From positions 1,763 through 65,762 of the forward strand of contig JAZOVV010000045.1 of NCBI GenBank assembly GCA_045658925.1: a stretch of DNA of 64,000 bases. The letters run 5' to 3'. The first letter of the stretch is position 1, and each line of letters begins with the position of its first letter. The position numbers were made by a program, and so were the translations under genes. The notes under the pieces were generated by a model. That model was given only the letters and a program-made list of their open reading frames with translations, was not told the origin of the DNA and made no database searches. Source of the stretch: Eubacteriales bacterium. GTDB taxonomy: Bacteria > Bacillota > Clostridia > Oscillospirales > CAG-272. Shown here one piece after another: positions 12,258 to 54,770 of the stretch.

Positions 12258-12334
12258 GGACCATTAGCTCAGTTGGTTAGAGCCACCGGCTCATAACCGG
12301 TCGGTCCAAGGTTCGAGTCCTTGATGGTCCACCA
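12258..12334 (+). tRNA. tRNA-Ile2 (CAT anticodon, lysidine type); elongator Met less likely
   Basis: Cloverleaf GGACCAT...CTCATAA...GTTCGAG...ATGGTCC-A-CCA, closely resembling Bacillota tRNA-Ile2. CCA is encoded. Confidence 0.9.
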
Positions 12335-12508
12335 CGCAAAGCCACCCCTTTGGGTGGCTTTTTTGCGTGGTAGACCATCAAGTTTGACTCGACCTTGCTC
12401 TGCAACGCAGTTGCAGAATAAGGTTCGCATTTCAAGCAAAGCCGACGGGAGCTCGCTCACAGGCGGCGCGCGCAGAAATATTGCCCCATAGTGGCAAAGT
12501 CCTTGATG
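12335..12508. repeat. tRNA-associated structured element: terminator hairpin plus inverted and direct partial copies of the tRNA 3' half
   Basis: 12368-12397 is a near reverse complement of 12307-12334. 12420-12427 and 12498-12508 together reproduce tRNA 12308-12326 exactly. Confidence 0.75.
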
Positions 12509-12608
12509 ATGTATTTTCGCTTTTCTATTTACTTTTCCATTTTGATATGATATAATAAATTTATTAACGTATCCTTTCCAAACTAAACTTTGCCTTGGAG
12601 AAATCAAA

Positions 12609-15600
12609 ATGAAACTAAAAAATAAGATTTTATCGCTATTTTTAGCCCTTTTTATTCTTTTTGGAATGGTTCCAACAACATTCGCAAGCACTGCTTCCCA
12701 ATCGGCAATCGCTGCCGTTGATGAAGATTTTAACGGCCTGCCCATCGGTTTGGAGCCCGACGGATGGACGGTTGAACCCATTGGTCGCACCGATGCGGGC
12801 GTTAAGATTGTCGCAGCTCCAAAAAAAGCACAAGGAGATAACGCTATGCGCATTGAGGATAATTCAACTGAATATGCCAATCCCGCTCGCGTAACCAAAA
12901 CCTTTGCGTCTGCTGCTGACGTAGAGCTTTGCTTTGACTACTACCTCGAAAGTGTTTCAGGCGCGAACGCTTTGGGCATTTGCAAGGACGGTATTGCAAC
13001 CAATCAAAAAAGAGTGAACCTTGGTATCTTCCCCAACGGGGACGGCAGTGCTACACTCAAATACTACAATCCCCAAACAAAATGGGTGGCAACTGCTAAA
13101 AAAGATATGCAAAAGGAAACTTGGTATTCCTTTAAGATTGTGTCAAAAGCCAATTCCGACACGGCTGACGTTTATGTGAACGGTGAGAAGATTGGCTCGG
13201 TTTGGGCTGACCAAAGAATTGCAACTGTCGACCGCATTGTCTTTCATACCAACAACAAAGCAAGCATCAATGACGTATTTTTGATTGACAACGTTAAGGT
13301 AATTGGCCCTGCCGTTGTTAGAGATTATCCCGTAGTTGCTTGCAACAGCGGCAAATTTGGATTTACTGCTACCCTTTCTCACCTATCAAATCTTAAATTC
13401 GCTCTCCTTTCGGGCGATGCATACGGCATTTATATTGCTGCCAAAGAGGATGGCGCGCTTTGCTATCGCCGTGATAACCGTTGGATTGAATTCAGCGCCG
13501 CAGGCGCCGTTTGCACCAATCAAGAAATGAAAATCGTTGTGGATTTGCCCGAAGGACGCAACGTTGATTATGCTCGCGTATATGTGAACGGCACTTACGT
13601 TGGTATGGCAATTTACACCAACAAATGTACAAACATAACCGCTATGCGCTTTGAAACCGAGGGCGACGTACGCATAACCGACGTTTGGTCGGACACCTCG
13701 GATGGCATCATACAAATGCCTTCTCGTACGGAAAGTGCACCTACGGTATACGTTCCCGAGGTCGTTGCCTCCTCTCCCCTTTATTGCCCCCTTGATTATA
13801 ATCCTTCTACCGGCAAGATGAACACATACACCGAAGATTGCTACGTTGACACCAACAACAATAGCGTTGGTGTAGATCTTGGGTATAAGCAACCTATCAA
13901 CGCGATTCGTCTATATGATAGCGATGCGGAAGTTACTTCCCGTTCCAACCATTTCACCCTTTGGCAAAGTGATGACAACAAAAATTGGACGGAGATACGC
14001 GGTTTTCAATTTAATCGCATCACCGAAGATGGCAAATGCCAAATTCTGTTTGAGTTCTCGGGCGTGGAAGCGCGCTACGTAAAAATCAATACTACAAAAT
14101 ACGATGAAGCTGCAAGCATTTATTTAAGTGACTTGTCTGCCTGCATTCGCGCAGAGCGCCGCATCGTCCGTCAGTGGAAGATGGCAGGCACACCGATGCA
14201 AGCTTTGGATGACTCCTCCCCCACCACAACGCCTATGGAACAAGTGTTTGTGCAGAACTCTTTGACCGTTACAAAAGGTGACAGCATTGGCATTTGGTTT
14301 GGTATTCACTCCGAGGTCGAAGCGATTGCGCTTTGTGGCAAGGGTCTTGAAAATCTTGGTAAGGATGCATTTGAACTCTATTACAGTAACGATAATATCA
14401 CTTATACGAAAATTGAGAACACCACTTTGAGCCGTGGGGAAAACACTTGGAGACTGACGTTTGACAGTATGAAATGCGGTTATCTCAAACTCTATGCAGC
14501 TGACGATATGAACGTTTCTCTTTCGAGCCTTGCAGACGGTATTTCGGCGTATTCCTCGCAGGAAGTGAACACAGGTCACGTTATGCAATCGACCGACAGA
14601 GGTGCGGACGGTGACTTTTACGTAATGCCGGACGGTACACTTGTAGCATCCTATAACGGCTTTGCCTCCAAGGTTGGCACTTCGGGTGGCGGTGATGCAT
14701 CCGATTCTTCGCTGAACGCTTTTACCTCCACCGACGGCGGGTATACTTGGGGCGACGGCAAAAGCTTTTTGATTAAAAGCGAAGGCAGCCTCAACGTGCT
14801 CAATCCAACCTATATTTGGCTTGCAGGCGGCGAGTTGGGTCTTATTTACATCGAAAAAGAAGCAACGGAAATCGCTAACATTTATATTCGCCGCTCTATC
14901 GATAACGGATTGACTTGGGGAGATGCCCAACGCATTACAGATGAACCTCAAGGATATTCCATTACCTCTAGCGGACACCGTGTTCTGCGTCTTTCCACAG
15001 GTCGTATTTTATTGCCCGTTGGTTATTCCGCTACCGTAAACGATGTGTACGGCTCAGATCGTGCTATTGGATACATTTGGTACTCCGACGATGAAGGTCA
15101 CACTTGGCACCGCTCTCTCGATGCCCTCACGCTTCCCCACGCAGCACTTGAGCCCTCGGTGGCAGAACTCAAAAACGGAAATATTTTGCTTTCTTTACGT
15201 ACGCGCGAGGAACGTGTTATTTACCAATCCATTTCCACCGACGGTGGCTTGACTTGGGCACAACCCGTCAAGATTGACATTCAATCCCCTAGCGCTACCA
15301 ACACGGTTATGCGCTTGCCTGCAACGGGTGATATTGCGCTCTTTTGGAACAACGATTTTTCTGCAAGTGGCGTTGACAGACGCCCCTTGACAGTAGTTCT
15401 TACCTCTGACGACGGATTGAGTTACCACAATCTTCGCAGTTTGGTAGAGTGTGATTATCCCACTCCTTGGCCGAGCGTGGCTTTTTATGGCAGAAGCGTA
15501 TTCTTAATGCACGGAAATGAAACGCACGTTCGTGTGTTTGATATTGCAACACTGTATTATACCACATCAGGCAAGGTGACTACCAACGATTTGCCGCAAG

Positions 15601-15962
15601 CCGCTACTCCCACAGCTGTGCTCGATAAAACAAGCGGTTGGCTGACGGGTATGAGTGAAACAATGCAATATTCTCTTGACGGTGGCAAAACCTGGACTTT
15701 TGCAGGTGGTACGAGCGTGCTACTTAACCTTGACAAGATAAACGCAATGGAAATTTTGGTTAAGGATATTGGAACAAGCGCCTTTGCACCTTCCACTATC
15801 CAAAGCATTTCTCTTATTCAAGAAGGCGAATCTCCCGAACAAAACACAAAACCGACCCTCGGTGCGGGCGCAATTGCCGCAATCGTGATCGGTTCTGTGG
15901 TTGCAGTTGGAACTGCCGGTCTTATAACATTTACTTTACTCAAAAGAAAAAAGAAAATTTAA
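12609..15962 (+). CDS. Secreted, membrane-anchored multidomain Asp-box (BNR) sialidase-like glycosidase with lectin/F5-8C-like modules
   Basis: Signal peptide. Asp boxes STDGGYTW, SIDNGLTW, SDDEGHTW, STDGGLTW, SDDGLSY. Discoidin-like motifs (VDLG, SDDNKNW, ARYVK). C-terminal TM helix with basic tail. Confidence 0.75.
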   Translation: MKLKNKILSLFLALFILFGMVPTTFASTASQSAIAAVDEDFNGLPIGLEPDGWTVEPIGRTDAGVKIVAAPKKAQGDNAMRIEDNSTEYANPARVTKTFASAADVELCFDYYLESVSGANALGICKDGIATNQKRVNLGIFPNGDGSATLKYYNPQTKWVATAKKDMQKETWYSFKIVSKANSDTADVYVNGEKIGSVWADQRIATVDRIVFHTNNKASINDVFLIDNVKVIGPAVVRDYPVVACNSGKFGFTATLSHLSNLKFALLSGDAYGIYIAAKEDGALCYRRDNRWIEFSAAGAVCTNQEMKIVVDLPEGRNVDYARVYVNGTYVGMAIYTNKCTNITAMRFETEGDVRITDVWSDTSDGIIQMPSRTESAPTVYVPEVVASSPLYCPLDYNPSTGKMNTYTEDCYVDTNNNSVGVDLGYKQPINAIRLYDSDAEVTSRSNHFTLWQSDDNKNWTEIRGFQFNRITEDGKCQILFEFSGVEARYVKINTTKYDEAASIYLSDLSACIRAERRIVRQWKMAGTPMQALDDSSPTTTPMEQVFVQNSLTVTKGDSIGIWFGIHSEVEAIALCGKGLENLGKDAFELYYSNDNITYTKIENTTLSRGENTWRLTFDSMKCGYLKLYAADDMNVSLSSLADGISAYSSQEVNTGHVMQSTDRGADGDFYVMPDGTLVASYNGFASKVGTSGGGDASDSSLNAFTSTDGGYTWGDGKSFLIKSEGSLNVLNPTYIWLAGGELGLIYIEKEATEIANIYIRRSIDNGLTWGDAQRITDEPQGYSITSSGHRVLRLSTGRILLPVGYSATVNDVYGSDRAIGYIWYSDDEGHTWHRSLDALTLPHAALEPSVAELKNGNILLSLRTREERVIYQSISTDGGLTWAQPVKIDIQSPSATNTVMRLPATGDIALFWNNDFSASGVDRRPLTVVLTSDDGLSYHNLRSLVECDYPTPWPSVAFYGRSVFLMHGNETHVRVFDIATLYYTTSGKVTTNDLPQAATPTAVLDKTSGWLTGMSETMQYSLDGGKTWTFAGGTSVLLNLDKINAMEILVKDIGTSAFAPSTIQSISLIQEGESPEQNTKPTLGAGAIAAIVIGSVVAVGTAGLITFTLLKRKKKI

Positions 15963-16996
15963 CGAATCGCCTTCTCCAAAAAGGCATTGATATCACCTAA
16001 CATTTTATCATTGGGAAGATTGACCAAATCGAGGTCGGCGTCGGCATAAACTGCTTGACGCTCCTCGGTGGGGATATCTTCCCCATATTTTTGTTTGAGT
16101 TCGGTAAGGCGTGCATTGATGCGGGCGATCTCTTCTACGCTTTTTGCATTGTGGAAGATGCTTGTGTGTCCGTCTTGTCCAGCGTCGCTCATAGGATAAA
16201 TGACAACGTTGGGGTTTGTAATTTCATCTCTGTGCGCTACAATACCGGTGCTATCAAAGCGGACAAGTGCGTCGCCGGTGCCGTGCACAAGCATAACGGG
16301 AATATTTGCACGATTGATGCCATCAACGGCTGTAAGTGTTGCGTATTTTCCAAAAAGGAAAAGGTACTCAAAGTAGGCAAAAGGGCGCAGAAGAGCGATT
16401 GCTCGGCTAATAGTCGAAGTACCAACGCTCAACATCATTTCAATTCCATCGGAGTAACCCGCAATGCTTGCCGAGGCTTTTACATTGTGGTCAAAATACA
16501 GCCCTGCGGCAACGGCATATCCGCCCCAGCTATGCCCCATCAGGCAGACGGGCAGATGCTTGAGTGTTTCGTCACTTTCGACATAAGTGAGTGCGGCGTG
16601 CAAATCAAGTGCCGATTGGATAAGCCCTGTTGTGCCAATGCCTTCACTTGTGCAAGAGCCTGTGGCGTCGTATGTGAAAACGCGCCAACCGCGGTCGACC
16701 ATCCAAAGAATTTCTTGTATATAGCTTTCGTGCCCTGAGTTGATGCCGTGTGCAAACACGAGGAGTCCTTTGGTATTTTCTTCACCAAAAATATAGCCCT
16801 GCAAACGGTTTTTGCCCGAGTAAAAGGAAACGTTGCGACGGGGATATGCATCTTTATAACAGTCGTAAAAATAATCGGCTACGGGATAGGCGGGATATTC
16901 CCCGCGCCCAAATTTTTTGCGCATAATGCGATGGGTGATGAGCAAAGCCGCCGCGAACAAAACGAGAACGGCACAAAAAAGAATCACAAAAGGCAT
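15959..16996 (-). CDS. Alpha/beta-fold hydrolase with N-terminal membrane anchor
   Basis: HG oxyanion motif, GHSWGG nucleophile elbow, HGTGD and later His. Confidence 0.88.
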   Translation of the reverse strand: MPFVILFCAVLVLFAAALLITHRIMRKKFGRGEYPAYPVADYFYDCYKDAYPRRNVSFYSGKNRLQGYIFGEENTKGLLVFAHGINSGHESYIQEILWMVDRGWRVFTYDATGSCTSEGIGTTGLIQSALDLHAALTYVESDETLKHLPVCLMGHSWGGYAVAAGLYFDHNVKASASIAGYSDGIEMMLSVGTSTISRAIALLRPFAYFEYLFLFGKYATLTAVDGINRANIPVMLVHGTGDALVRFDSTGIVAHRDEITNPNVVIYPMSDAGQDGHTSIFHNAKSVEEIARINARLTELKQKYGEDIPTEERQAVYADADLDLVNLPNDKMLGDINAFLEKAIR

Positions 16997-17058
16997 TGAT
17001 TTTCTCCTTAGCTTAGTTTCATCTTTATTATACCATTTTCAAAGAGAAAATACAAGGC

Positions 17059-17655
17059 TCATTTTCCTTTTTGCGGCACTCTCCCTTCAAAAAATCGTGC
17101 AAGAAGTGTGAGCGTGAAGAAAAAGAGGGAGATTCCATCGGCAATTTTAATCATTAGGTAAGCCGAAAATGCCCACAAAAGCCACAAAAACAAAAAGGTA
17201 CAACCGCGCAAAATCAAGCCCGTTTTTTGCGGCGTGGTAAAGGATAGAAGCGCGCACTCGAGCATTCTTCCGCCATCGAAGGTTTGAATGGGTAAAAGGT
17301 TGAGCAGTCCCAATAGAAGTGAGGCGCAGGAGAATGCAATGGCAAGAGCGCCGTGTGACCAAAAGAATGAACCGACAAGCGAAAAAGCAAGGCTTGACAA
17401 GGGGCCCGAGGCGCACAAAAGCCATTCTTCGCCATAGGATAGGATGCGCCCTTTGACGTCAATGCGCGCGCCGAGTAAATCGAAGCGCATGCAACCGATG
17501 GGGATTTTTAAAAACCTCGCCGCTGCAAGATGCCCCAGCTCGTGCAAAGCCGCCGCCAAAAGGCTCATTGCTGCAAGACCGCTCTTATCGCAAAAAAACA
17601 TAAAAAGCAGATAAATGAGGGCGAGTGGTTGTATCAAAAAGCGTTTTCGTTTCAT
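17059..17655 (-). CDS. spoIVFB: Site-2 (M50) metalloprotease, SpoIVFB-like
   Basis: HELGH and NLLPxxxFDGGR motifs, hydrophobic, sporulation gene neighbourhood. Confidence 0.75.
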   Translation of the reverse strand: MKRKRFLIQPLALIYLLFMFFCDKSGLAAMSLLAAALHELGHLAAARFLKIPIGCMRFDLLGARIDVKGRILSYGEEWLLCASGPLSSLAFSLVGSFFWSHGALAIAFSCASLLLGLLNLLPIQTFDGGRMLECALLSFTTPQKTGLILRGCTFLFLWLLWAFSAYLMIKIADGISLFFFTLTLLARFFEGRVPQKGK

Positions 17656-17682
17656 CGGTTCTTCCCTTTTCTCTTTTTTTAC

Positions 17683-17711
17683 AACCTATGTCATCTATCC
17701 TCGGGATATGC
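17683..17711 (-). promoter_or_regulatory. Putative sigma-E (mother cell) promoter
   Basis: Minus strand reads gcATA-16 nt-CATAggtT, matching the ATA-N16-18-CATAnnnT consensus. Confidence 0.5.
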
Positions 17712-17712
17712 A

Positions 17713-17750
17713 AAAAAGCACGGCCGACCAAAGCGTCTGCCGTGCTTTTT
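17713..17750 (-). terminator. Intrinsic terminator after dpaB
   Basis: Stem aaaaagcacggc/gccgtgcttttt. Confidence 0.7.
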
Positions 17751-17754
17751 ATCT

Positions 17755-18315: not shown

Positions 18316-18338
18316 AGCGTTTACCCTTTTCCTCTCTC

Positions 18339-19226: not shown

Positions 19227-19298
19227 TGCTGTCCCCCCGCTTCTATCGATACACTGTCAGTATATGAAAAAAGCCTCGTTTCGACACAGAAACAAGGC

Positions 19299-21557
19299 TT
19301 ATTTTACAAAAAAGGTAATGGGTTCGCGGACATACTTGATATTGAGCGTGTTTTTGTAATCGGCGATGAAGCGAAGCAGCATTTCATCGGTGATAAAAAC
19401 CGCTTTATGGACTTTCCACGAGTGCTCGATAACGGTGCTTTCGGAGTTGGAAAAGCCCGTTTCTCCCAAAATGACGTAGTCGGCGGCATTCATCATATCG
19501 TGCATTTGATTGACAAGTAATGACTCGGGGAGTGAGCCGTTGACGTAGGTAAAGACTTCCCCACCAACCTCGGCACTGAACAGGAGCGCATCGTGCCGCT
19601 CGTTCGGCATGGTTTGGTGTTCGCTTGTGAGAATTTTCAAATCGTCAATCGCAAGATTCTCTGTGCCGAAAACAACGGCAATTCCGTGCCTTTCTGCCTC
19701 TTTGATAAGTTGATTGGCAATCGATTGCTCTTCTTGACTGTTGGGATGCGGCAAATGTAAGGTTTTGACACGTATACGCTTTGCCATTGAATAGATAAAA
19801 TAAGTATCGCGATTGTGATAATGTGTTAAGATTAGGTCGTCGAGCTCGGTGCAGCGCAAATCGTTTGCAATGCCCAAAAGTTGTACACCGCCGCCTGCCG
19901 TACCGTCGGAAAAATCGACCATCACGCTCTTATCCTTGTTGGTGAACAGAATCAAATCTCCACCGCCTGCGTGAACGAATGAGAAAGAGGTTCCGCGGTT
20001 TGGTAGATACGTGACGCAAAGAGATGTCAAAATTGTGATAAAAGTCAAAGCAAGCGGCACCAAGCACCACCGTTTTACCCTTTTGAGCTTTGCCACCGCA
20101 ACAAAAACAAGGCTGAGCAACACTGCAAGCGCGCAAAGTTGTGAGAACGTATCGTTCAAGGGCATTAGGATTCCTTCGATATTTGAAAACCATTCGGTAA
20201 CGGTGAGCATAATATTCCCCACAAAGGCGGTAACGATGCCGATTTGCGGAATGATAAGCGTGATAACAGACAGAACAAGCAATAGCGTTGTGGGAATAGA
20301 CAGTGCCAGCGTTGCAGGCACAGAGCCGAGAGAGACCTCGCCAAAGAACACCGCTTGCAGATATAAGAGCGCGAGATTTGCCGCAAGACCGACAACAACG
20401 GCAGTAATTGCTCCGCAAATCACCTTTATCAGCTTTGGTGAAATTGTCAGCTTGTTATAGAGGAAATTTTGCACAACGTCAAACGCAGGCAAGAAAATCA
20501 AAATGGATGCCGCAGCAACAAAGGATAGCCACATTCCCATATCGAGAACGGCATTGGGAGAAACGAGGAGCAATAGCGCGAGAACGGTGCAGACAGAGGT
20601 CAATGGGTCGTAATCGGTATTCCAATAGTAGCCGAGTGTGAGAACTCCCAACATCAGTACGGCACGTGCGATGGAGGGTGACGCACCCGTAAAGAAAAGA
20701 TATCCAAACGCAATGACAAACACAGAAATTGCGCGAATACGCTTGGGACAGGAAATGAGCTTTAAGAAAAGCTCCAATGCAGCAATGAGTATGGATACGT
20801 GCAAGCCGCTGAGTGCCAACAGATGCGAAACGCCCGCACGGCGGAAATGCAGTGAGGTATCCCCCGAGAGGTGGTCGCGCGTTCCAAAGAGGAGTGCCGA
20901 GGCAAGCTTGCCTGCTTCCCCACCGATAATTTGTTCCAGATGATAGGAAGCTGCAAAGTTCCAACGCGAAAGCGTTGCGCGCAAGGAAAACTTGCCGCTC
21001 TCCAACAATTCGCATTTCTCCATATCCTCATTTGTGATGCAAAGAAGAATTCCGTCTCGAAGGGAATTGATTTCTTCATTCTCCATATATTGGGTTTCAA
21101 AAGGCGCGCCTGTGCCCGAAAGGCGGAAACGGTCACCCACCTGCAAGGAGCTCGCATATGGGAATTGCAAACGCACGTCGGCGAGGCAAGGCTTGCCGTT
21201 GATTTTGTGAACCTCGGCTATGAGCGTGCTTTGGTAGGGCTTGCCCGTTTCGCGTTCGAGCACAACGCCTTCCACAATACATTCTTCCCCTATGCGCGCC
21301 TGCCAATTTTGATAGCGCACGTTGAAGAAAAAGTATGAAGAAACGAGCGCGAGAATAACAGCCAAAAGAATGAAAACACCGAGAAAAAGATTTTTCTTCT
21401 TGGTTTTAAAAAACAGAAAAGTTAGGACAAGAAGGGATAAAACAGAGGCTATAATGCATATAATTTGAACTGATGCGGACATCGTTTGTGCCAAAACTGC
21501 CACCGCGGCAAAGGTGCAACAAGACAATGCAAGCGGTCTATTATGAAAAATATGCAC
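19299..21557 (-). CDS. comEC: ComEC/Rec2 DNA-uptake channel
   Basis: GVSHLLALSGLH, ASPSIARA, multiple TMs, C-terminal MBL-like region. Confidence 0.9.
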   Translation of the reverse strand: MHIFHNRPLALSCCTFAAVAVLAQTMSASVQIICIIASVLSLLVLTFLFFKTKKKNLFLGVFILLAVILALVSSYFFFNVRYQNWQARIGEECIVEGVVLERETGKPYQSTLIAEVHKINGKPCLADVRLQFPYASSLQVGDRFRLSGTGAPFETQYMENEEINSLRDGILLCITNEDMEKCELLESGKFSLRATLSRWNFAASYHLEQIIGGEAGKLASALLFGTRDHLSGDTSLHFRRAGVSHLLALSGLHVSILIAALELFLKLISCPKRIRAISVFVIAFGYLFFTGASPSIARAVLMLGVLTLGYYWNTDYDPLTSVCTVLALLLLVSPNAVLDMGMWLSFVAAASILIFLPAFDVVQNFLYNKLTISPKLIKVICGAITAVVVGLAANLALLYLQAVFFGEVSLGSVPATLALSIPTTLLLVLSVITLIIPQIGIVTAFVGNIMLTVTEWFSNIEGILMPLNDTFSQLCALAVLLSLVFVAVAKLKRVKRWCLVPLALTFITILTSLCVTYLPNRGTSFSFVHAGGGDLILFTNKDKSVMVDFSDGTAGGGVQLLGIANDLRCTELDDLILTHYHNRDTYFIYSMAKRIRVKTLHLPHPNSQEEQSIANQLIKEAERHGIAVVFGTENLAIDDLKILTSEHQTMPNERHDALLFSAEVGGEVFTYVNGSLPESLLVNQMHDMMNAADYVILGETGFSNSESTVIEHSWKVHKAVFITDEMLLRFIADYKNTLNIKYVREPITFFVK

Positions 21558-22676: not shown

Positions 22677-23324
22677 ATGAGAATGAGAAGAAAAAAGCAC
22701 GGTGCCGAGAGAATCGCCGCGTGCTCCGAAATTTTAATCCCCTCTCCCATCGCGCCTGCGGCAGATCCGCAGTCCTTTTTTGCGGACAAGCGCCCCGTTT
22801 GCCTTGAAATTGGTTGCGGCAAAGGTGATTTTGCCGTTGGTATGTCGGCAAAATATCAAGACCTCAACTTTATAGCTATGGAGCGCGTTCCCGACGTGGC
22901 TTGTCTTGCTTTGGAAAAGGCAATGGCGGCAAAGGATTCTCGCCCCGACAATTTGAGATTTTTGATTGGTGATGCGCGAAACCTCACCGAGTTTTTCCTG
23001 CCTCACTCCTTTGATAGAATTTATCTCAATTTTAGTGATCCGTGGCCTAAAAAAGGGTACGCGAAGCGTCGTTTGACACATCGCGGATTCCTTGAGCTTT
23101 ATCGCTCTTTGCTCACTGAGCACGGTCTTTTGATCCTTAAAACCGACAACGAAGGACTCTTTGATTTCAGTTTGGAAGAATTTGAAGCAATGGGTCTCAC
23201 CATCGAGTGGCAAACACGCGACCTGCACGCGTCCGAGGCTGCTGCCGAGAACGTTATGACCGAATATGAGCGTCATTTCTCGGAGCTTGGTCAGGTTATT
23301 TATTCGGCTCGCGTTCGTTTTTGA
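22677..23324 (+). CDS. trmB: tRNA (guanine-N7)-methyltransferase
   Basis: LEIGCGKG, LNFSDPWPKK, KTDN, MTEYE. Confidence 0.96.
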   Translation: MRMRRKKHGAERIAACSEILIPSPIAPAADPQSFFADKRPVCLEIGCGKGDFAVGMSAKYQDLNFIAMERVPDVACLALEKAMAAKDSRPDNLRFLIGDARNLTEFFLPHSFDRIYLNFSDPWPKKGYAKRRLTHRGFLELYRSLLTEHGLLILKTDNEGLFDFSLEEFEAMGLTIEWQTRDLHASEAAAENVMTEYERHFSELGQVIYSARVRF

Positions 23325-23912: not shown

Positions 23913-23927
23913 GGAAAGGAATTGGCT

Positions 23928-24836
23928 ATGGTACTGGAACCCAACGGCGTGCTCATTGTAAACAAGCACGCGGGCGTAACCTCTCACCACATTGTGGGTG
24001 TGGTTCGCCGTCTTTATCATACACGCCGTGTGGGACACGCAGGCACACTTGACCCGATGGCAACGGGTGTGCTCGTGGTGCTTATCGGTCGCGCGGCAAA
24101 GGCCTCGGAGTATCTTTCGCACGATGCCAAGCATTACCGTGCCACTCTGCGACTCGGTCTTACCACCGATACAGAGGATACCACGGGTACAATTCTTACA
24201 ACTTCGGAGAATATTCCTACAAATGAAGAATTACAAGCAATTCTTCCCCGCTTTCGCGGTGAAATTTTGCAAATTCCGCCGATGTATAGCGCACTCAAGG
24301 TAGATGGGCAAAAGCTTGTTGACCTTGCTCGACGCGGTGAAGTCATTGAGCGCAAGGCACGCAAAATCACAATTTTTTCCCTTGAAGCGACTCCTACCGA
24401 CGATGCCTGCGAGTATATTCTTGACGTACATTGCTCGGGCGGCACTTACATTCGCACACTTTGCGCCGACATTGGTGCTGCACTTGGTTGTGGCGGTGCT
24501 ATGGCGGCTCTTGAGCGCGGTGAAGCCTGCGGATTTGACCTTTCCCTTGCACACACCGTGGAAGAATTGGAAGAGATGAGCGACGAAGAACGCGAAAACT
24601 TGCTCATTCCCACCGAAAGACTCTTTTCAAATTTACCACAGATTCGTCTTTCGGCATTCTTTGAAAAGCTCTCGCGCAGCGGATGCGAAATTTATCTCAA
24701 AAAAATAGGACTTGACTTCCCTCTTGGCACACGCGTAGCTCTCTGTGATGCAAACGGTAACTTCTTCGCTCTTGGCGAGGTTGGTGAGTTCAAAGACGGT
24801 ATTGCCGTAAAAGCGATTAAATTGTTTGCCTTATAA
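23928..24836 (+). CDS. truB: tRNA pseudouridine(55) synthase
   Basis: GHAGTLDPMATG, QIPPMYSALK, CSGGTYIRTL. Confidence 0.96.
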   Translation: MVLEPNGVLIVNKHAGVTSHHIVGVVRRLYHTRRVGHAGTLDPMATGVLVVLIGRAAKASEYLSHDAKHYRATLRLGLTTDTEDTTGTILTTSENIPTNEELQAILPRFRGEILQIPPMYSALKVDGQKLVDLARRGEVIERKARKITIFSLEATPTDDACEYILDVHCSGGTYIRTLCADIGAALGCGGAMAALERGEACGFDLSLAHTVEELEEMSDEERENLLIPTERLFSNLPQIRLSAFFEKLSRSGCEIYLKKIGLDFPLGTRVALCDANGNFFALGEVGEFKDGIAVKAIKLFAL

Positions 24837-24957: not shown

Positions 24958-25227
24958 AAAAAGGCAATGACCGGAAATCAAGTACAAAACGTCTTTTGTG
25001 CACAGAGAGCTGCCGTTTGGTGCGAGGCAGTAACAGGGCCGTTTTGGAAATACACTCCGCGAGCTTTGCATCGAAAGTCACTCGGCGAGTAAGATGTAAC
25101 GGGTTGCTCCGTTATAGGCATAGGGTATGATGGTACCCGATGAGGTCTGATTTGTGAGAATCAGGCGAACAGAGGTGGTAACACGAAAGTTTTTCGTCCT
25201 CCGAGCACAGTCTCGGAGGGCTTTTTT
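24958..25227 (+). ncRNA. T-box riboswitch, Tyr (UAC) specifier
   Basis: Stem I with AGUA, AGAGA, GGUGCGA and GAAA-UAC-A (25051-53). T-box AACAGAGGUGGUAACACG (25168-85). Terminator tcctccgag/ctcggaggg plus U tract. Confidence 0.9.
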
Positions 25228-25261: not shown

Positions 25262-26851
25262 ATGGACACTATTATCATCACAGCTTTATTGGTCGTATTC
25301 TTTGCGATTATGATCGGCATTGGCATTTATTGCCGTAAACATTCCACGGATGTGGGCGGATTTGTGCTTGGCGGCCGCTCGATTGGCCCTTGGCTCACCG
25401 CGTTTGCGTTTGGTACATCCTACTTTTCTGCCGTCATCTTTGTGGGATATGCGGGACAGTTTGGTTGGAACTTTGGTTTGGCTTCCACTTGGATCGGTCT
25501 TGGCAACGCCTTTATCGGGTCTCTTCTCGCTTGGGTTGTGCTTGGTCGTCGCACACGCGTTATGACACAGCATCTGGGGTCAAAAACAATGCCCGACTTC
25601 TTTGGCAACCGTTTTGGCTCGAATAGACTCAAAATTGCGGCCTCTTGTATTACCTTTGTTTTCCTTATTCCCTACACCGCATCTCTCTACAACGGACTTT
25701 CCCGCCTCTTCTCGATGGCGTATGAGGGCATTGACTACGCCGTTTGCGTAATTGTTATGGCCGCGCTGACAGGTGTTTACGTTCTTCTTGGCGGCTACGT
25801 TGCAACCGCCATCAACGACTTTATTCAAGGAATCATTATGCTTGGCGGTATTGTTGCCGTTATTTGGGCTGTTTTGCGCGACAACGGCGGCCTTGGTTCG
25901 GCTATCGAACAACTCGCCACCGGCGAGAATGGCGGTTGGGAGTATGCTTCTTTCTTTGGTGCTGACCCTGTATTCCTGCTCTTTGTCGTGCTTTTGACCT
26001 CTCTTGGCACTTGGGGACTGCCGCAGATGGTTGGTAAGTTCTACGCAATCAAGGACGAGGATGCCATTAAGAAAGGCACGGTTATCTCGACTGTGTTTGC
26101 TATGGTCGTGGCGGGCGGATGCTATTTCCTTGGCGGCTTTGGACGTCTGTACGACGTAAGCGATGCCGTTGCAATGGGTGACTATGACGCGATCATTCCC
26201 ACAATGCTCTCCACACTCCCCACAGTCATTATTGCGATTGTAATTGTTTTGGTTTTGTCTGCATCGATGTCGACGCTCTCCTCTCTGGTGCTGACGAGCA
26301 GCTCTACGGTAACACTCGATTTTATCGCGCCTCTTTGCGAGAGGAAAAAGCCCTTGAATGAAAAGAAGCAGATGCTCTGCATCCGCGCATTTATTGTGGT
26401 ATTCATCGTCATTTCGGCAGTCATCGCCATTATGCAGTACCAAAACAAGAATATGCTCATTGCACAGATGATGGGTGTATCGTGGGGTGCACTTGCAGGT
26501 GCATTCCTCGCTCCTTTCCTCTACGGTCTGTACTGGAAAAAGACCACGAGAGCGGGCGTTGTGGCATCCTTTGTGTTTGGCGTTGGTCTTGAGATCGTTC
26601 AGTTGCTCATTTCGATGAAGGTATTCAGCGTGGCGAACATTCCTGTGCTTTCCTTCGTATTCAGCAATTCCCTCTTCTCGGGCGTGTTTGCTATGATTGG
26701 TGGATTGATTCTTGTTCCCATTGTTAGTCTCTTGACACAAAAGACCGCTCCCACAAACACCGCCGAGATCTTCTCTTGCTACGAGCGCAAGGCTCTTGTT
26801 ACGGTGACGGATTCTTTGGGAGAGGAAAGGAGGATTGTTGAAAATATATGA
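25262..26851 (+). CDS. Sodium:solute symporter (SSS/PutP family), probable amino-acid transporter
   Basis: Many TMs, GGRSIGPW, SAVIFVGYAG, WGLPQM, SASMST. T-box leader upstream. Confidence 0.9.
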   Translation: MDTIIITALLVVFFAIMIGIGIYCRKHSTDVGGFVLGGRSIGPWLTAFAFGTSYFSAVIFVGYAGQFGWNFGLASTWIGLGNAFIGSLLAWVVLGRRTRVMTQHLGSKTMPDFFGNRFGSNRLKIAASCITFVFLIPYTASLYNGLSRLFSMAYEGIDYAVCVIVMAALTGVYVLLGGYVATAINDFIQGIIMLGGIVAVIWAVLRDNGGLGSAIEQLATGENGGWEYASFFGADPVFLLFVVLLTSLGTWGLPQMVGKFYAIKDEDAIKKGTVISTVFAMVVAGGCYFLGGFGRLYDVSDAVAMGDYDAIIPTMLSTLPTVIIAIVIVLVLSASMSTLSSLVLTSSSTVTLDFIAPLCERKKPLNEKKQMLCIRAFIVVFIVISAVIAIMQYQNKNMLIAQMMGVSWGALAGAFLAPFLYGLYWKKTTRAGVVASFVFGVGLEIVQLLISMKVFSVANIPVLSFVFSNSLFSGVFAMIGGLILVPIVSLLTQKTAPTNTAEIFSCYERKALVTVTDSLGEERRIVENI

Positions 26852-46528: not shown

Positions 46529-46543
46529 AGGGACAACCAACAC

Positions 46544-46572: not shown

Positions 46573-46579
46573 CCTTTAT

Positions 46580-48087: not shown

Positions 48088-48108
48088 AATTCTCCTTATA
48101 ATAATCGG

Positions 48109-48696: not shown

Positions 48697-48717
48697 AGTT
48701 TTCCTCCTTTCTTAAAA

Positions 48718-50307: not shown

Positions 50308-50312
50308 CCTGT

Positions 50313-50540
50313 TTATTCTTCGTCAAGACGCTCGATAAGCGCCCAAATGGTGTTTACGTTTTGGAAGTTTTCGGGAATCAGCTCCTCGGCAGGAATTTGC
50401 ACGTCAAACTCCATACCAATCTCGGTAACGAGACGAACCATATCGAGGGAATCGAGCACGCCCTCGTCGTAGAGGTCGTCAATCGATGCAAAATCTACGT
50501 CGGGGTGAAGTCCGTTCAAAATTTTGAGTAAAGTTTCCAT
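50313..50540 (-). CDS. Carrier protein (DltC-like ACP)
   Basis: GVLDSLDM phosphopantetheine motif, PENF, acidic 75 aa. Confidence 0.88.
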   Translation of the reverse strand: METLLKILNGLHPDVDFASIDDLYDEGVLDSLDMVRLVTEIGMEFDVQIPAEELIPENFQNVNTIWALIERLDEE

Positions 50541-50583
50541 AATCTATTGCTCCTTAAAGTAACTGTCTAAATATCCACATTAT

Positions 50584-50612
50584 ATTATACCTTTTTTTAG
50601 AGTGGTTGTCAA
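50584..50612 (-). promoter_or_regulatory. Sigma-A promoter of the ACP-MBOAT operon
   Basis: Perfect TTGACA-17-TATAAT on the minus strand. Confidence 0.8.
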
Positions 50613-50696
50613 TGTGAAATGGGAAGATTTTTAGAGTTTTTTGAACTATTTATTAGCCTCCCTTGTGTAAAGCGAGCCTTTCGATAGATACGCAAA

Positions 50697-50720
50697 CAGC
50701 CGCACCCGAAAGTGCGGCTG
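50697..50720 (-). terminator. Intrinsic terminator
   Basis: cagccgcac/gtgcggctg stem downstream of the 50742 gene. Confidence 0.65.
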
Positions 50721-50741
50721 GGAACATTTAATATATGCGAA

Positions 50742-51467
50742 TCAATATCTGTCCTCAAATATATGACGACATTTCCAAAACTCCCTTGCGAGGAAAATGA
50801 CCACAGCCACCAATAAAATCAATGCCAGAGCGGTAACCAACAATGACTGTACAAAAACAATAGTCCGCGCATCATACAAAACTGTTGTTTGTCCGTCTGC
50901 ATTGGTACTTGTCAACTGTGAATAATTTATTGCAAACAAATTTAGGATGCCAAGATCGTTTTGAATAGCATATGTTTGACCTTGCACACTTTTTTCATTT
51001 GCCCCAACATCGTCCCAATAGGAACGATTGGCATAGGTATCTTCAATCTCTGACATTTGCAAAATTTGACCATTGGCATCAATTGATATAACAAGGTCAC
51101 TGCGAACTGTGCAAAGATTAATCAGGTCGCCATCCCATTCAACGCCAAAAGTACCCGCGGATTTAAATGTATAGCCATATTGGAATTCACCTTGATTGTA
51201 AACGCAAATCGTTTTTTTGTAGCGTCCCGCATCACAACCAATTACAAGCATTCCGTCTTCACGCACGTCAAAGCACGCAACGGGATATTTTGTAGGCTCT
51301 GATGTGATAGGCGTGAGTTGCAAATTCCCCTCGATTTTTTCTTGCTCCTCTTCGCTAATGTCCACCACAGAAAATCCTGTGTTGAGCGCGCTTGCACTTA
51401 TCATACTGTTCTGTATGATGATAATGCTAAAAAGAAATGCGCAAATCATTAGAAATGTTTTTTTCAT
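50742..51467 (-). CDS. Hypothetical exported protein with C-terminal TM anchor
   Basis: Signal peptide ending ASA, C-terminal hydrophobic helix. Confidence 0.7.
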   Translation of the reverse strand: MKKTFLMICAFLFSIIIIQNSMISASALNTGFSVVDISEEEQEKIEGNLQLTPITSEPTKYPVACFDVREDGMLVIGCDAGRYKKTICVYNQGEFQYGYTFKSAGTFGVEWDGDLINLCTVRSDLVISIDANGQILQMSEIEDTYANRSYWDDVGANEKSVQGQTYAIQNDLGILNLFAINYSQLTSTNADGQTTVLYDARTIVFVQSLLVTALALILLVAVVIFLAREFWKCRHIFEDRY

Positions 51468-51529
51468 AAGATAGATATTCCCTTTCAAAATTGAGCGGCA
51501 AGTACAATCAAAACATCAAAAAATTTATG

Positions 51530-52156
51530 TTACTTTTTCTTTTTGAGATAGAATTTCGACTCTGTTCCGGCTCTCAGGCGGCTGATGTTTTGGTGGTGGC
51601 GGGCTACTACGAGAATACCTGCAACTGCCATAATCACGAGTGTGATAGGGTTACGGCATCCGAGGATGAAGAGCACGATGGGAAACAGAACTGCAAAGCT
51701 CATGGATGCCACCGACATAAAACGGATGGTGAAAAGAATGATTACAAAGATGGCAAAGCAAATAAGTCCTGCGCGCCAATCAACAAACCACACACCTGCA
51801 AGGAAGGTGAGAACCGCCTTTCCCCCCTTAAAATCGTACCATACGGGGAACGCGTGGCCAAGCATACAGCCAAGAAGTGCGGATGCTGCGGCAAGTTGAC
51901 CTGCCCCATAAGCATTCTGCATTACAAGCTTTGCAAGGAGCACCGGAAGGATGGTTTTGCAAATATCAATCGCCATAACGCCAAAGGTTGCGGGGGCGAA
52001 GCCGTGAAGTCGTTTGAAATTGGTAAAGCCGGGGTTTTTGCTACCAAGCTTGCGAATGTCCTCGCGGTAAACCAAGTGCGAGAGGATAATGGCGCCGTTG
52101 ATACCGCCAAGCAAATATGCAAATGCGGCAAATGCTAAAGAATTCAAATATAACAT
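51530..52156 (-). CDS. plsY: Glycerol-3-phosphate acyltransferase
   Basis: YLLG, GSKNPGFTN, DICK, GHAFP..FKGGKAV, RHHQNI.RL. Confidence 0.93.
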   Translation of the reverse strand: MLYLNSLAFAAFAYLLGGINGAIILSHLVYREDIRKLGSKNPGFTNFKRLHGFAPATFGVMAIDICKTILPVLLAKLVMQNAYGAGQLAAASALLGCMLGHAFPVWYDFKGGKAVLTFLAGVWFVDWRAGLICFAIFVIILFTIRFMSVASMSFAVLFPIVLFILGCRNPITLVIMAVAGILVVARHHQNISRLRAGTESKFYLKKKK

Positions 52157-52175
52157 ATCGGTACTTCCCTTTCAA

Positions 52176-52793
52176 TCAAAGTTTGTTTTCGGTGTCGTTA
52201 AATGCCAACAAAATGTGGTGCGTGTTTTTGCGAACGCGAACAGTATACATTGTCGTCCAAAAGTTTACGATGCCGACAAGTCCCATCGAAACACCCATCC
52301 AAACGCTGACGTCGAGCTCGTGGTATGCCAACATAATCAGCACAACACCCACAAGGATTTCTAAAATGGCGGAAATAAGAACCCAATACCACTTTTTAAT
52401 GCCAAAGTTTTTGCCTTCAAGTGCCATTTGCGACTTATTTGTGCCATCGAGAATGGTCAAAATAGAAACGGCAGTAGGCAAAAGAACGGAAAGCTGGACG
52501 GGATTGATAATCAGCAAAACGCCAAAAATAACGTTAAAAATACCGAGGGCAAAGTCGAGTTGGAACGCCAAACGGTACATATCGTTGGAAAAATAACCGT
52601 AAATGCCCGTAGCACCGATGATGATGCTTGCAACTCCTACCACGATGTTGCGGAAAATGCCGGAATCTTCAAAATCCGGTACGAGTGCCAAAAGCAGTCC
52701 TGCCACAAAAAAGATGACAGCCGAGCAAAGGTGCATGATTTTTGCGCTTTTGACAATGGCACTGCTAATATCTGTGTTGTTTTGTTGATTCAT
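52176..52793 (-). CDS. DUF308/HdeD-like membrane protein
   Basis: Six TM helices with repeated GI...I.G..L..P pattern. Confidence 0.7.
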   Translation of the reverse strand: MNQQNNTDISSAIVKSAKIMHLCSAVIFFVAGLLLALVPDFEDSGIFRNIVVGVASIIIGATGIYGYFSNDMYRLAFQLDFALGIFNVIFGVLLIINPVQLSVLLPTAVSILTILDGTNKSQMALEGKNFGIKKWYWVLISAILEILVGVVLIMLAYHELDVSVWMGVSMGLVGIVNFWTTMYTVRVRKNTHHILLAFNDTENKL

Positions 52794-53359
52794 ATCTCTT
52801 CACTCTCCTTTTGGGGTTGATAGGTTGTAATCTTTTGGAGCGCAGTTGTAAAATAGGATTTGATGCGGTTGGATGCGTGTGCGATTTGCTGTGGATCTGT
52901 CGTTCTGCGCGGATCGCACACCCAACGCATTAGTGTGCCCACAAGCGCTTCCTCGCAGAGGACACGTACAAGATTTTCATCTTCTTCTGCCCCTCGTATG
53001 CTTTGCAAATACCGTAACAGATGCGGTCGCACCTGCTTTTTGAGGTAATTGGCAAGCGGTTCGTAGCCCACCGAATGATACAAATTATAAAGCACCTTTT
53101 GATATTCGACGCAGAATGCAAAGGAAGATGCCAAAAAATCTTCAAAGCTTTCGCTTTCCTCTCCAATCTGCTCAAATCCTGCAGCGAGGGCGTACTCAAG
53201 AACCTCGTAAATATCGTGAAAATAGTAGTAGAAGGTGTTGCGCGTGATGCCACAAGCTTCTACAATGTCGCGCACGGTTATCTTTTTAACGGTCTTTTGT
53301 TCGACCAGGCGCATCGTAGTCTCTACAATCGCCTTTTGCGTCAGTTGTGACAAAAGCAT
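52790..53359 (-). CDS. TetR/AcrR-family regulator
   Basis: ITVRDIVEACGITRNTFYYYF helix-turn-helix. Confidence 0.92.
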   Translation of the reverse strand: MLLSQLTQKAIVETTMRLVEQKTVKKITVRDIVEACGITRNTFYYYFHDIYEVLEYALAAGFEQIGEESESFEDFLASSFAFCVEYQKVLYNLYHSVGYEPLANYLKKQVRPHLLRYLQSIRGAEEDENLVRVLCEEALVGTLMRWVCDPRRTTDPQQIAHASNRIKSYFTTALQKITTYQPQKESEEI

Positions 53360-53519
53360 ACCTCCTCTCTTGTCTTATGCCATTATTATAGCATTTTTTC
53401 CTTTCTTTTGCAAGAAGGATAATAAAAGTTTACAATATTGAAAAAAGCATTGATTTTTAGGGCAAAATATGCTATAATAGCGTGTATTTGTTTTAAATTC
53501 AAAAAGGATTCTTGATTAT

Positions 53520-54455
53520 ATGAAATTTTTTAATAACGTCAAAGGCAGTGCCATTCTTGCCTTGGCTGCCCTGATTTGGGGACTTGCTTTTGTTGCGCAA
53601 GCACAGGCTGCCGACCTTGTTCCCCCCTTCGCATTCAATTCCATTCGTTGCTTTATCGGCTCGGCGGCTCTCTTTGCAGCACTCTCGGTAAAAAGTATAA
53701 AAACGAAAAAACCTATCTTTCCCACCGAAAAGGTGAAAATCAAAGAAATGCTCATTGGCGGCATTTTGTGCGGTATTTTTTTGGCTGTGAGTGTAAATTT
53801 TCAGCAATTCGGCCTCTCGGTCTATCCCGAAGGCTCGGCAAGTGAAGCAAGAGCTGGCTTTATTACGGCACTTTACGTCGTTCTTGTTCCTGTAGTTTCT
53901 ATGTTCTTTGGCAAAAAGAGCAACGTTATCATTTGGGGAGCTGTTGCGGTTGCTACCTGCGGTATCTATCTGCTCAGCCTTTCCGAGGGGCTCCACAACA
54001 TTTACCTTGGCGACCTCTTGATGCTTGGTTGTGCCCTGACCTTTACTTTTCATATTCTTGTTATCGACCGCTACGGCGAGCCCGTTGGCGGAATGCTTCT
54101 TTCCGCATTGCAATTCTTGGTTGCAGGTATCCTTTCGGGTGTGCTTGCCCTTTGTTGCGAGACGGTTGTGTGGGAAAACGTGCTTGCCGCCGCGCCGCAG
54201 CTGCTTTATATGGGTATCATGTCCTCGGGTGTGGCTTATACGCTGCAAATTTACGGTCAACGCTATGCAGAGCCTCCCGTTGCTTCGCTTACCATGAGCC
54301 TGGAAAGTGTTTTTGCCGCTCTTGGCGGTTGGATTATTTCGGGAAACACCCTCACGCCCCGCGAATTTGGCGGATGTGCACTCGTGTTCACCGCAATCGT
54401 TTTGGCACAGTTGCCGCAGTTTTTTGGAAAGAAAAAAGAGGCGGGAACTGTCTAA
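53520..54455 (+). CDS. DMT/EamA family transporter
   Basis: IWGLAFVAQ, AGFITALY, GDLL, AYTLQ, SLESVF; about 10 TMs. Confidence 0.92.
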   Translation: MKFFNNVKGSAILALAALIWGLAFVAQAQAADLVPPFAFNSIRCFIGSAALFAALSVKSIKTKKPIFPTEKVKIKEMLIGGILCGIFLAVSVNFQQFGLSVYPEGSASEARAGFITALYVVLVPVVSMFFGKKSNVIIWGAVAVATCGIYLLSLSEGLHNIYLGDLLMLGCALTFTFHILVIDRYGEPVGGMLLSALQFLVAGILSGVLALCCETVVWENVLAAAPQLLYMGIMSSGVAYTLQIYGQRYAEPPVASLTMSLESVFAALGGWIISGNTLTPREFGGCALVFTAIVLAQLPQFFGKKKEAGTV

Positions 54456-54494
54456 TTATGACAAAAAGATTTTTGACAAAATGTGCTCGGATAC

Positions 54495-54523
54495 TTGACA
54501 CCGAGCACATTTTGTATTATAAT
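54495..54523 (+). promoter_or_regulatory. Sigma-A promoter of tRNA-Gly
   Basis: Perfect TTGACA-17-TATAAT. Confidence 0.85.
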
Positions 54524-54537
54524 TGTAAAGCACCCAA

Positions 54538-54611
54538 GCAGGTGTAACTCAATGGCAGAGTGTCCGCTTCCCAAGCCGAATACGCGGGTTCGATTCCCGT
54601 CACCTGCTCCA
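54538..54611 (+). tRNA. tRNA-Gly (CCC)
   Basis: GCAGGTG/CACCTGC acceptor stem, U73, encoded CCA, anticodon loop TTCCCAA, T-loop TTCGATT. Confidence 0.92.
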
Positions 54612-54770
54612 AAAAGGAACCCCCACGCGGTTGCGTGGGGGTTCTTTTTGGCACAGTTGACGAGTTTTGAGAAACTGTGTGCGCGCATAGTGCGCCCGCG
54701 ACGAATTTGCGAAGCAAATTTGTGGCTCGATTGCAAACAATCGAGCCTTGGTTCTGATTCCCGTCACTTG
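54612..54770. repeat. tRNA-associated structured element: terminator, inverted and direct partial copies of the tRNA 3' end, hairpin array
   Basis: 54649-64 matches the reverse complement of 54596-611 at 12/16 positions. 54750-70 matches tRNA 54587-606 with one insertion and one substitution. Three perfect hairpins lie between them. Confidence 0.75.

Follow-up and report, generated by a model that had tools for sequence, protein, structure and literature searches.

Short gene-less cassettes with structured cores and tRNA-matched arms behind tRNA genes of gut Clostridia: an apparently undescribed family of elements

What places the same succession of an inverted copy of the tRNA end, a set of hairpins and a broken direct copy of that end behind two different tRNA genes? 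The question is raised by a 64,000-nucleotide stretch of DNA (the window, meaning here the whole stretch analyzed) from contig JAZOVV010000045.1, positions 1,763 to 65,762, of an Eubacteriales bacterium (GenBank assembly GCA_045658925.1; genome G000 in our set, 1.93 Mb in 73 contigs, 95.6% complete, with 36 tRNAs). The window holds two tRNA genes, tRNA(CAT) at 12258-12334 and tRNA-Gly(CCC) at 54538-54611, both called by ARAGORN and confirmed by Rfam. An earlier reading of the bare letters (the original prediction) had seen a common downstream layout at both, with sequence specific to each tRNA, and had suggested a common generating mechanism. Here, we describe this layout as a recurrent architecture that is built on several conserved core families and found behind many tRNA genes, and whose units appear to be a so far undescribed family of tiny elements tied to tRNA genes.

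At the first locus, the tRNA with anticodon CAT (plus strand, called as Met by ARAGORN, where the original prediction has Ile2) is followed by a terminator hairpin with A- and T-tracts (12335-12367) that forms the apex of a long palindrome. Next, the last ~28 nt of the tRNA (TGG, the acceptor 3′ strand and the T-arm) recur in antisense at 12368-12397, in register with the terminator and differing from a perfect copy by a 3-nt insert and a 1-nt gap (local alignment score of 35, z of 9.8 versus shuffles). A perfect 7-bp hairpin with a C-GCA-G triloop (12400-12416) leads into the module that we call family B (12416-12511, equivalent to G000:C45:14178-14273; 73.9 bits with covariance model R1). 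This module contains the T-stem 5′ half plus TTCG (12420-12427), a structured insert of 71 nt (12428-12498) that includes the invariant loop GGGAGCTCGCTCAC (12447-12460), and the T-stem 3′ half with the start of the acceptor strand (12499-12511). All these features lie on the plus strand, as do those of the second locus.

Behind tRNA-Gly(CCC), the terminator hairpin has a 12-bp stem and bidirectional A/T tracts (54612-54648), and it is continued in register by an antisense copy of CCA, the acceptor 3′ strand and the T-stem 3′ strand (54649-54662, 11 of 14 positions complementary). The core, of a different family (family A, 54664-54757, delimited by family alignment and pair counts), consists of three perfect hairpins at about 54681-54695, 54701-54723 (GAA triloop with a C-G closing pair) and 54724-54747, and then CTTGGTTC. 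At its right end, the T-loop, T-stem 3′ strand and acceptor strand are repeated in sense orientation, with an additional T at 54755 (54750-54773; score of 31, z of 8.1). Both regions fold far better than dinucleotide shuffles (z of −7.5 for Met and −9.3 for Gly, with 0 of 200 shuffles matching in each case). Reading the sequence thus bears out the layout described originally, namely terminator, antisense copy, hairpins including a cGNAg triloop and interrupted sense copy, with an insert of 71 nt at Met. An exact 14-nt string is common to the 3′ coding end of an EamA-family gene (54400-54430) and the Gly antisense arm (54645-54665); this match is probably due to chance, as relatives keep the arm while the gene differs at that spot.

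These two cases follow a plan found in all units collected here, which are about 110 to 190 bp long, non-coding and free of open reading frames (ORFs), and lie directly 3′ of a tRNA gene: behind the terminator stands the tRNA 3′ end in antisense, then a conserved hairpin core, and last the T-arm and acceptor 3′ strand once more in sense orientation, with the T-arm disabled. Such units are numerous in this genus and sporadic in other gut Clostridia. The antisense arm starts at the exact point where the terminator stem would continue, so that tRNA 3′ end, terminator and arm together make one long palindrome, and since the arm contains TGG and the complement of the acceptor 3′ strand, it holds a 5′ acceptor strand. 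Some families include the T-arm complement as well. The right end has the same form in every family: a T-arm 5′ half, GGTTC, leads into a T-stem 3′ strand and an acceptor strand that are tRNA specific, and it is here that the T-arm is broken. The commonest break is one extra A or T after TTC; others are two added bases (Pro-TGG, L017), extra bases at the T-stem 5′ border (Leu), two separate insertion places (Ser-GCT) and the 71-nt module of family B. Given this variety, we infer that disruption of the T-arm has been selected or survives preferentially, which is unlike the footprint of one enzyme. Only in what is apparently a recent case, the tRNA-Met of an outgroup genome (G095), is the T-arm of the sense copy unbroken. 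One unit without a terminator was also seen inside a tRNA operon, between tRNA-Val-TAC and tRNA-Asp (G000:C1:217-365, minus strand), its Val sense copy being complete through CCA.

The original prediction had proposed aligning every tRNA end with its flanks against controls, and this comparison gave a pattern above background at other tRNA loci. In its first form, the last 30 nt of each of the 36 tRNAs of G000 were aligned to 350 nt on each side; in the final form, we compared the last 26 nt with 300-nt flanks in G000 and two well-assembled relatives of the same genus (G015 and G019), with other tRNAs masked and a score of at least 24 demanded. Copies of the tRNA 3′ end were found within 300 nt downstream of 31 of 71 tRNAs and upstream of none of 82, which places the architecture far above background. 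By genome, the downstream and upstream counts were 12/28 and 0/33 (G000), 15/30 and 0/34 (G015) and 4/13 and 0/15 (G019). Among the 31 positives, the copy was in sense at 24 and in antisense at 11, these figures including 4 with copies of both kinds, so a displaced direct repeat of the tRNA 3′ fragment follows 24 of the 71 tRNAs at this score, and up to 44% of the tRNA genes of a genome carry copies of tRNA ends. Element density varies by lineage, with 1/39 downstream and 0/31 upstream in a complete genome of another family (G033) and 3/17 and 0/13 in G095. A genome-wide BLAST search for distant sense copies of tRNA ends gave a noisy background in which kilobase-sized elements were not discernible.

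The polarity of these counts also speaks against chance similarity or an artefact of assembling metagenome bins. Several copies do lie at contig ends (C4, C21, C39, C60), and arrays are prone to misassembly. Against this, there is the absence of upstream hits, the same architecture recurs in assemblies made independently by many studies and in a complete genome that is one contig, and DNA contigs from two other studies (runs X3 and X7) cover parts of the Met element region, all of which makes an artefact hardly credible. A general tendency of terminators to be extended as palindromes was likewise rejected: among 486 non-tRNA terminator-like hairpins in G000, flank complementarity reached a score of 24 in only two, both being A/T tracts or nested hairpins, while 13 tRNA-adjacent hairpins were detected in the same test with scores including 38, 37, 22 and 21.

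The cores of these elements, according to BLAST of the elements against the G000 genome and inspection, are common to different tRNAs. Family A occurs at Gly-CCC, at Ala-GGC (two units) and at a contig end with the 3′ end of tRNA-Trp; family B at Met, Ser-GGA, Gln-CTG and two contig ends; a further family at Leu-TAG and Leu-CAG; and family D at His and Arg-ACG. The Met and Gly elements are dissimilar because they belong to different families. The claim that they have no primary sequence similarity therefore holds between the two, while each has close relatives at other tRNAs, and the internal sequence, which had been taken as locus specific, turns out to belong to conserved families. With 31 occupied tRNAs in three genomes, the original prediction no longer depends on two examples.

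Using window positions 54648-54775 as the query, we found family A in 15 of the genus's 78 genomes. The tRNAs concerned are Gly-CCC, Ala-GGC and Trp-CCA, and two to five units often stand in an array. Over 31 distinct units, pairing holds in 97.7% of the cells of the three family A helices, compared to 22 to 47% when partners were slid, and 10 pairs have changed on both sides. One G.U on the tRNA strand is invariant in all 31. For the test of compensation between arm and sense copy, the regular expressions caught 16 units, many internal sense arms being truncated. Beside a two-unit family A array in another genome (G063; locus L066), the tRNA-Gly-CCC has a 3′ acceptor strand unable to pair with its 5′ end and receives no ARAGORN call, which is either an assembly error or a damaged gene.

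To follow family B beyond the genus, a pattern with 19 specified bases was scanned against one genome per species of bacteria and archaea. The motif was found at no fewer than 117 loci, of which 80 were taken with their flanks. The high-GC loci among these 80 are chance matches in coding regions, without tRNAs; 38 have a GC content of 60% or less, and three of them (L113, L161, L174) were dropped by eye as chance matches. The remaining 35, among the matches listed, come from metagenome-assembled genomes of gut Clostridia, Eubacteriales, Oscillospiraceae or Acutalibacteraceae, with a locus GC content of 38 to 59%. Again among the matches listed, a tRNA lies within 400 nt at 21 of the 35, in all 21 cases upstream and on the same strand, with 77 to 271 nt between the tRNA end and the motif. 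These tRNAs are Met, Gln-CTG, Gln-TTG, Glu-CTC, Glu-TTC, Ser-GGA, Cys, Gly-CCC and Tyr. RNAalifold gave a poor structure on the raw MAFFT alignment, so a hand-drawn one was used, which comprises the T-stem halves, two covarying helices, a helix that closes the invariant loop and a hairpin with a variable triloop. In 33 sequences, 84.8% of its cells are paired, compared to 35 to 42% after sliding, with 15 double-change pairs and none of 500 shuffles as high. The covariance model built on it, another step proposed at the outset, recovers six copies in G000 and hits 4 of 151 genomes and 4 of 97 genera sampled from the order; three copies in other genera follow tRNA-Gln (two) and tRNA-Tyr. At the two window loci, tRNA is the only Rfam family reaching its gathering score, and over either element nothing meaningful appears even at an E value of ≤10.

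Some family B units with arms of the tRNA-Cys type are found behind the terminator of a protein-coding gene (G000:C34:~900-1120, L125, L163, L117). There, a conserved GGCATCTTTTTTGTCAAC stretch follows the gene in place of tRNA-Cys, and a near-identical unit sits behind a real tRNA-Cys in L106. Several other kinds of repeat were noticed. The spacer between two units after tRNA-His (G000:C48:10209-10350) contains a separate dispersed repeat of ~55 to 85 nt with its own hairpin, which occurs at 12 or more other places in G000 (C72, C51, C41, C55, C11, C42, C56, C70, C57) and is unrelated to tRNAs. Arrays of short hairpins with recurring spacers (ATGAAG/ATGAAATC or TATATCATC) follow other tRNA terminators and form a distinct kind of tRNA-downstream repeat (G000:C71:870-1080; L060 at Arg-ACG of G019; L056 and L229 at Tyr of G019 and G058; L227 in G006). 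An element of ~190 nt in L048, L054 and L028 (G015/G019) and in L220 (G131, from another family of the order) is made of TTCAC-type direct-repeat runs and inverted copies, with a T-arm-like GGGTTCAAATCC at its right end, and lies after the terminator that follows the tRNA or sense copy.

How do the units come to be where they are? Comparison between species shows both presence/absence and replacement of one family by another. Of the genus's 20 tRNA-Gly-CCC loci, some have family A, others a D-like core or a further core, and some have nothing; loci L006 and L010 have a common right junction and flank with a wholly different terminator, antisense arm and core. Which tRNAs are occupied differs among G000, G015 and G019. 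At tRNA-Tyr, the genomes G000, G006 and G073 have an element and G063 and G058 have none; these are close relatives (88 to 97% identity in the neighboring protein), and the empty sites lie in rearranged contexts. Within arrays, internal sense copies are degenerate or truncated, and one arm of the palindrome is often deleted. The distal-most sense copy is perfect through CCA and is followed by a different terminator in L092, L046, L219 and at Tyr of G000, as one would expect of an original 3′ end that has been displaced; copies perfect through CCA are also present in L033, L048, L054 and L057. At tRNA-Met of G095, an insert of ~190 nt lies between perfect direct repeats of ~70 nt (T-arm to CCA plus terminator). 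The copy number of the Met element is polymorphic in a natural population as well: public runs were examined as assembled contigs, and a contig of one DNA run from another study has the Met element tandemly duplicated, with a joint from 12507 back to 12334 and five letters between. Lastly, both arms of L158 match another tRNA-Gln allele and not the adjacent gene, and the arms of L151 retain an older state of the tRNA, so that arms are passed on with the element and not continuously recopied from the neighbor.

We tentatively favor, somewhat short of calling it probable, the reading of these units as non-autonomous integrative cassettes at tRNA 3′ ends. It draws on their downstream, co-oriented polarity, the same core with tRNA-matched ends, turnover at one locus, presence/absence, arrays, the copy-number polymorphism at Met, the arms of L158, the patchy distribution of family B and the match to the logic of tRNA-gene islands. 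The element would bring its own tRNA 3′ segment, usually with a terminator; crossover within or beside the T-arm would regenerate the tRNA and push the former 3′ end downstream. Tandem arrays might then arise by repeated entry or by unequal crossing-over, and old copies would decay by indels and loss of one palindrome arm. We infer both the position of the crossover and the movement of units as DNA, whether present or past. The common generating mechanism suggested at the outset is thereby supported in outline.

A mechanism that requires no mobile element would be template switching during replication in situ. The terminator would fold back and the tRNA end be copied inversely, a second switch, at a hairpin further downstream, would restore the sense direction, and gene conversion inside the palindromes would come next. 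Such a process would account for an antisense arm that is always exactly in register with the terminator stem, for the perfect complementarity of many first-unit arms, which track a C/T polymorphism of the tRNA-Gly acceptor stem, and for a sense/inverted/sense layout around two hairpin centers as the outcome of two switches. It leaves unexplained the conserved cores common to different tRNAs and genera and the arms that match another tRNA allele in L158 and L151, and the terminators of other genes have no such extensions (the 2 of 486 above). We consider it unlikely.

If the units are integrative cassettes, something must move them, and we searched for such machinery. As predicted, the window has no integrase or transposase: none is found by Pfam among its 54 ORFs, and the PF00589 and PF01797 matches of G000 are all on other contigs. 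The regions downstream of two other occupied tRNAs (4 to 15 kb) contain Ffh, LDH, MscS and mini-RNase III and no integrase. Out of the four PF00589 (tyrosine recombinase) matches of G000, three are on C52/C64, where no element core matched, and the fourth, a partial one, is separated by about 11.5 kb from the family B copy of its contig, C34. BLAST found no longer, ORF-bearing copies of the elements in G000. No target-site duplication was seen at the junctions read: direct repeats are lacking there, and the units are bordered by one terminator's T-tract and the next one's A-tract. The mover could be a recombinase supplied in trans, or the host's own homologous recombination might act on DNA that has been taken up.

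Mobilization by an HUH enzyme, one of the candidates of the original prediction, had to be abandoned because Y1 transposase and elements do not co-occur across the genus. The IS200-type Y1 transposase (PF01797) is present in 21 of 78 genomes, 18 of them over the Pfam cut-off, and there is no match above the cut-off in several genomes rich in elements (none in G019, G014, G003 and G045, and a weak one below the cut-off in G015). The sole IS200 tnpA of G000 (C71:129-485, plus strand) has typical end hairpins and lies just 5′ of the promoter of tRNA-Val-GAC (784-860), which has no tRNA-specific cassette. Scaffolds of the IS110 bridge-RNA or TnpB omega-RNA type and retrons were discarded on the absence of their enzyme families, as IS110 (PF01548), TnpB (PF07282) and reverse transcriptase (PF00078) had 0 matches each in G000.

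Partial tRNA 3′ copies downstream of a tRNA gene are a classical mark of integration (PMC4383910; 10.1101/2020.12.28.424599), and the units could in principle be decayed attL/attR scars of ordinary tRNA-integrating phages or integrative and conjugative elements (ICEs). Scars of this kind would hardly be expected to be 110 to 190 bp long with conserved, covarying cores, nor to affect up to 44% of tRNAs. No integrase remnants lie alongside the units in the regions examined, blastn matched neither element among 50,697 phage records and 72,556 plasmid records, and the family B motif has a single match in IMG/VR viral contigs, due to chance, in a coding region of 65% GC. This explanation is accordingly judged quite improbable.

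Several of these results weigh against the integrative reading too. No recombinase adjoins or accounts for the elements in the regions examined, the three enzyme families just named are missing from G000, and no vehicle is known, since searches of phage, plasmid and viral collections did not turn up the elements. Among close relatives, no clean pair of empty and filled sites with identical flanks was found for Gly-CCC, Arg-ACG or Leu-TAG, no excised circle was obtained, and the assembled contigs of public runs contain no excision joint of the Met element. Wherever the tRNA locus was recovered, it has its element at Arg-ACG (G058, G073, G006) and at Leu-TAG (all five relatives), which is compatible with vertical inheritance. 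At the empty Tyr sites, the base of the terminator stem resembles the proximal terminator and not the distal one, which fits integration only if the identity block of the element includes the terminator. Neither the antisense arm nor the in-register palindrome is required by such a model, and the strict conservation of the 14-nt loop and helices suggests a function beyond decay.

That function might be exerted as RNA. Read-through of the tRNA terminator would give a structured tRNA-like transcript with a 5′ acceptor strand in the antisense arm, the core replacing the D and anticodon arms, an altered T-arm and a 3′ acceptor strand, and it could act in cis (processing, decay, insulation) or in trans, as a decoy or mimic of the acceptor/T minihelix of its own tRNA. 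Compensatory changes keep the helices of families A and B, the 14-nt loop is invariant across hosts of very different GC content, the G.U on the tRNA strand never varies in 31 family A units, co-orientation with the tRNA is strict, and the T-loop is disabled in several ways (+1, +2, stem-border insertion, module of +71 nt), a pattern suggestive of selection against functional tRNA 3′ halves. It is clear from the covariation that the hairpins matter, be it as RNA or as DNA. GNA triloops with a C-G closing pair and perfect Watson-Crick stems suit DNA hairpins, and both are expected of palindromes at the DNA level. Family B has no strand asymmetry (plus and minus strands fold equally well, 17 against 16; 40 GT/TG against 41 AC/CA). 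Promoter-like sites precede the genes, at 12216-12244 for tRNA(CAT) (11 of 12 consensus positions), 54495-54523 for tRNA-Gly (12 of 12) and 12528-12556 for the gene after the Met element (ORF 12609-15962), all on the plus strand, but a consensus scan found none inside either element, and the strong terminator between tRNA and element argues against abundant transcription. No listed RNA contig piece covers 12335-12510, which says nothing about transcription, as contigs break at the tRNA. Arrays, replacement of one family by another at the same locus and truncated internal sense arms would be unusual for a functional RNA. This explanation seems possible but rather doubtful.

A further, speculative idea, which we hold to be improbable, is that the units are self-guided elements that mimic tRNA, a bacterial counterpart of tRNA-derived SINEs (short interspersed nuclear elements). 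Their arms would pair like the 3′ duplex of the cognate tRNA gene, a host factor would be drawn in by the core (in family B, for example, by its 14-nt loop), and the element would home by nucleic acid pairing as folded single-stranded DNA or RNA, with no recombinase of its own, and be retargeted by a change of arms. We also leave a small part of the probability to readings other than those set out here.

How do integrative cassettes of this kind relate to known systems? In tRNA-gene islands, the tRNA gene is regenerated and a displaced 3′ fragment marks the far end, and in such islands and tycheposons, successive entries stack beside the tRNA while older ones decay (PMC4383910; 10.1101/2020.12.28.424599). 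Like these islands, the units sit at the 3′ part of a tRNA whose gene remains intact, have a displaced 3′ copy at the far end and stack. They differ in being gene-less and only 110 to 190 bp long, with no integrase in cis or nearby, and in having an antisense arm that continues the terminator in register, hairpin cores common to several tRNAs, a disabled T-arm and an occupancy that reaches 44% of a genome's tRNA genes. Their appearance is that of structured miniature cassettes without genes at tRNA 3′ ends, with an antisense arm and conserved cores that the island model does not explain.

Cis-mobilizable elements (CIMEs) are att-flanked remnants of ICEs or integrative and mobilizable elements (IMEs) without recombination genes, and they form tandem accretions. 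The units resemble them in their att-like direct repeats, lack of a recombinase and tandem arrays, but they are far smaller, one core is fitted to many tRNAs, and no cognate integrase-bearing element was found at the same tRNA genes in the regions examined. With miniature transposable elements that carry inverted repeats (MITEs) and repetitive extragenic palindromes or their mosaics (REP/BIME), the units have in common that they are short, non-coding and multicopy, with inverted arms at the ends, perfect GC-rich hairpins and copies at contig breaks. Here, however, the inverted repeats are the 3′ end of the neighboring tRNA and not a transposase-binding end, the junctions read have no target-site duplication, there is no Y1/RAYT co-occurrence, and, apart from the Cys-type copies, the units are not dispersed (the tRNA is upstream of family B in 21 of 21 among the matches listed).

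The tRNA-like domain of tmRNA and the Y-RNA-like YrlA mimic an acceptor stem and T-arm while the tRNA body is otherwise replaced. The units do the same in form, but no Rfam family (tmRNA and tRNA included) matches over the element, each mimics its own neighbor, the T-loop is non-canonical and there is no promoter. Integron attC sites and the attP of CTX phage, used by XerCD, are recombination sites folded from a single strand. The likeness is purely formal: two inverted, bulged target-like copies ~100 nt apart could fold into a duplex that mimics the target, and arrays grow at a regenerated site. The target would be the tRNA T-arm/acceptor, in contrast to attI or dif, and no replicating single-stranded vehicle is known. 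The units are thus set apart from integrase-bearing islands, CIMEs, MITEs, REP/RAYT or IS200/IS605 derivatives, IS110/TnpB scaffolds, retrons and all Rfam families, and in a literature search that did not extend to supplements, no account was found of such elements or of the 14-nt motif.

The 54 ORFs of the window are housekeeping genes by Pfam, including AddAB, V-ATPase, MurE, DinB, ComEC, TruB and a TrmB-like methylase. A ComEC-type competence protein (19299-21557), the TrmB-like (Methyltransf_4) methylase (22677-23324) and TruB (23922-24836) provide context for DNA uptake and T-loop biology; ComEC is common in Firmicutes, and its presence here is no proof of DNA uptake. The only further Rfam match in the window is a T-box leader (24958-25204, plus strand, 121 bits) directly 5′ of a sodium:solute symporter ORF (25262-26851).

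The elements explain many contig breaks beside tRNAs in bins of gut Clostridia and could mislead predictors of islands and att sites, and families A and B add two motifs supported by covariation that are unmatched in Rfam release 15. If the integrative reading is true, they would represent a miniature, gene-less tier of tRNA-gene integration that takes up as much as nearly half of a genome's tRNA loci with structured cores and tailored arms. They would offer a test system for the retargeting of mobile DNA between tRNA genes, and would bear on how much the 3′ flanks of tRNA genes tolerate and on whether host recombination or a trans-acting enzyme moves cassettes that consist of att sites only.

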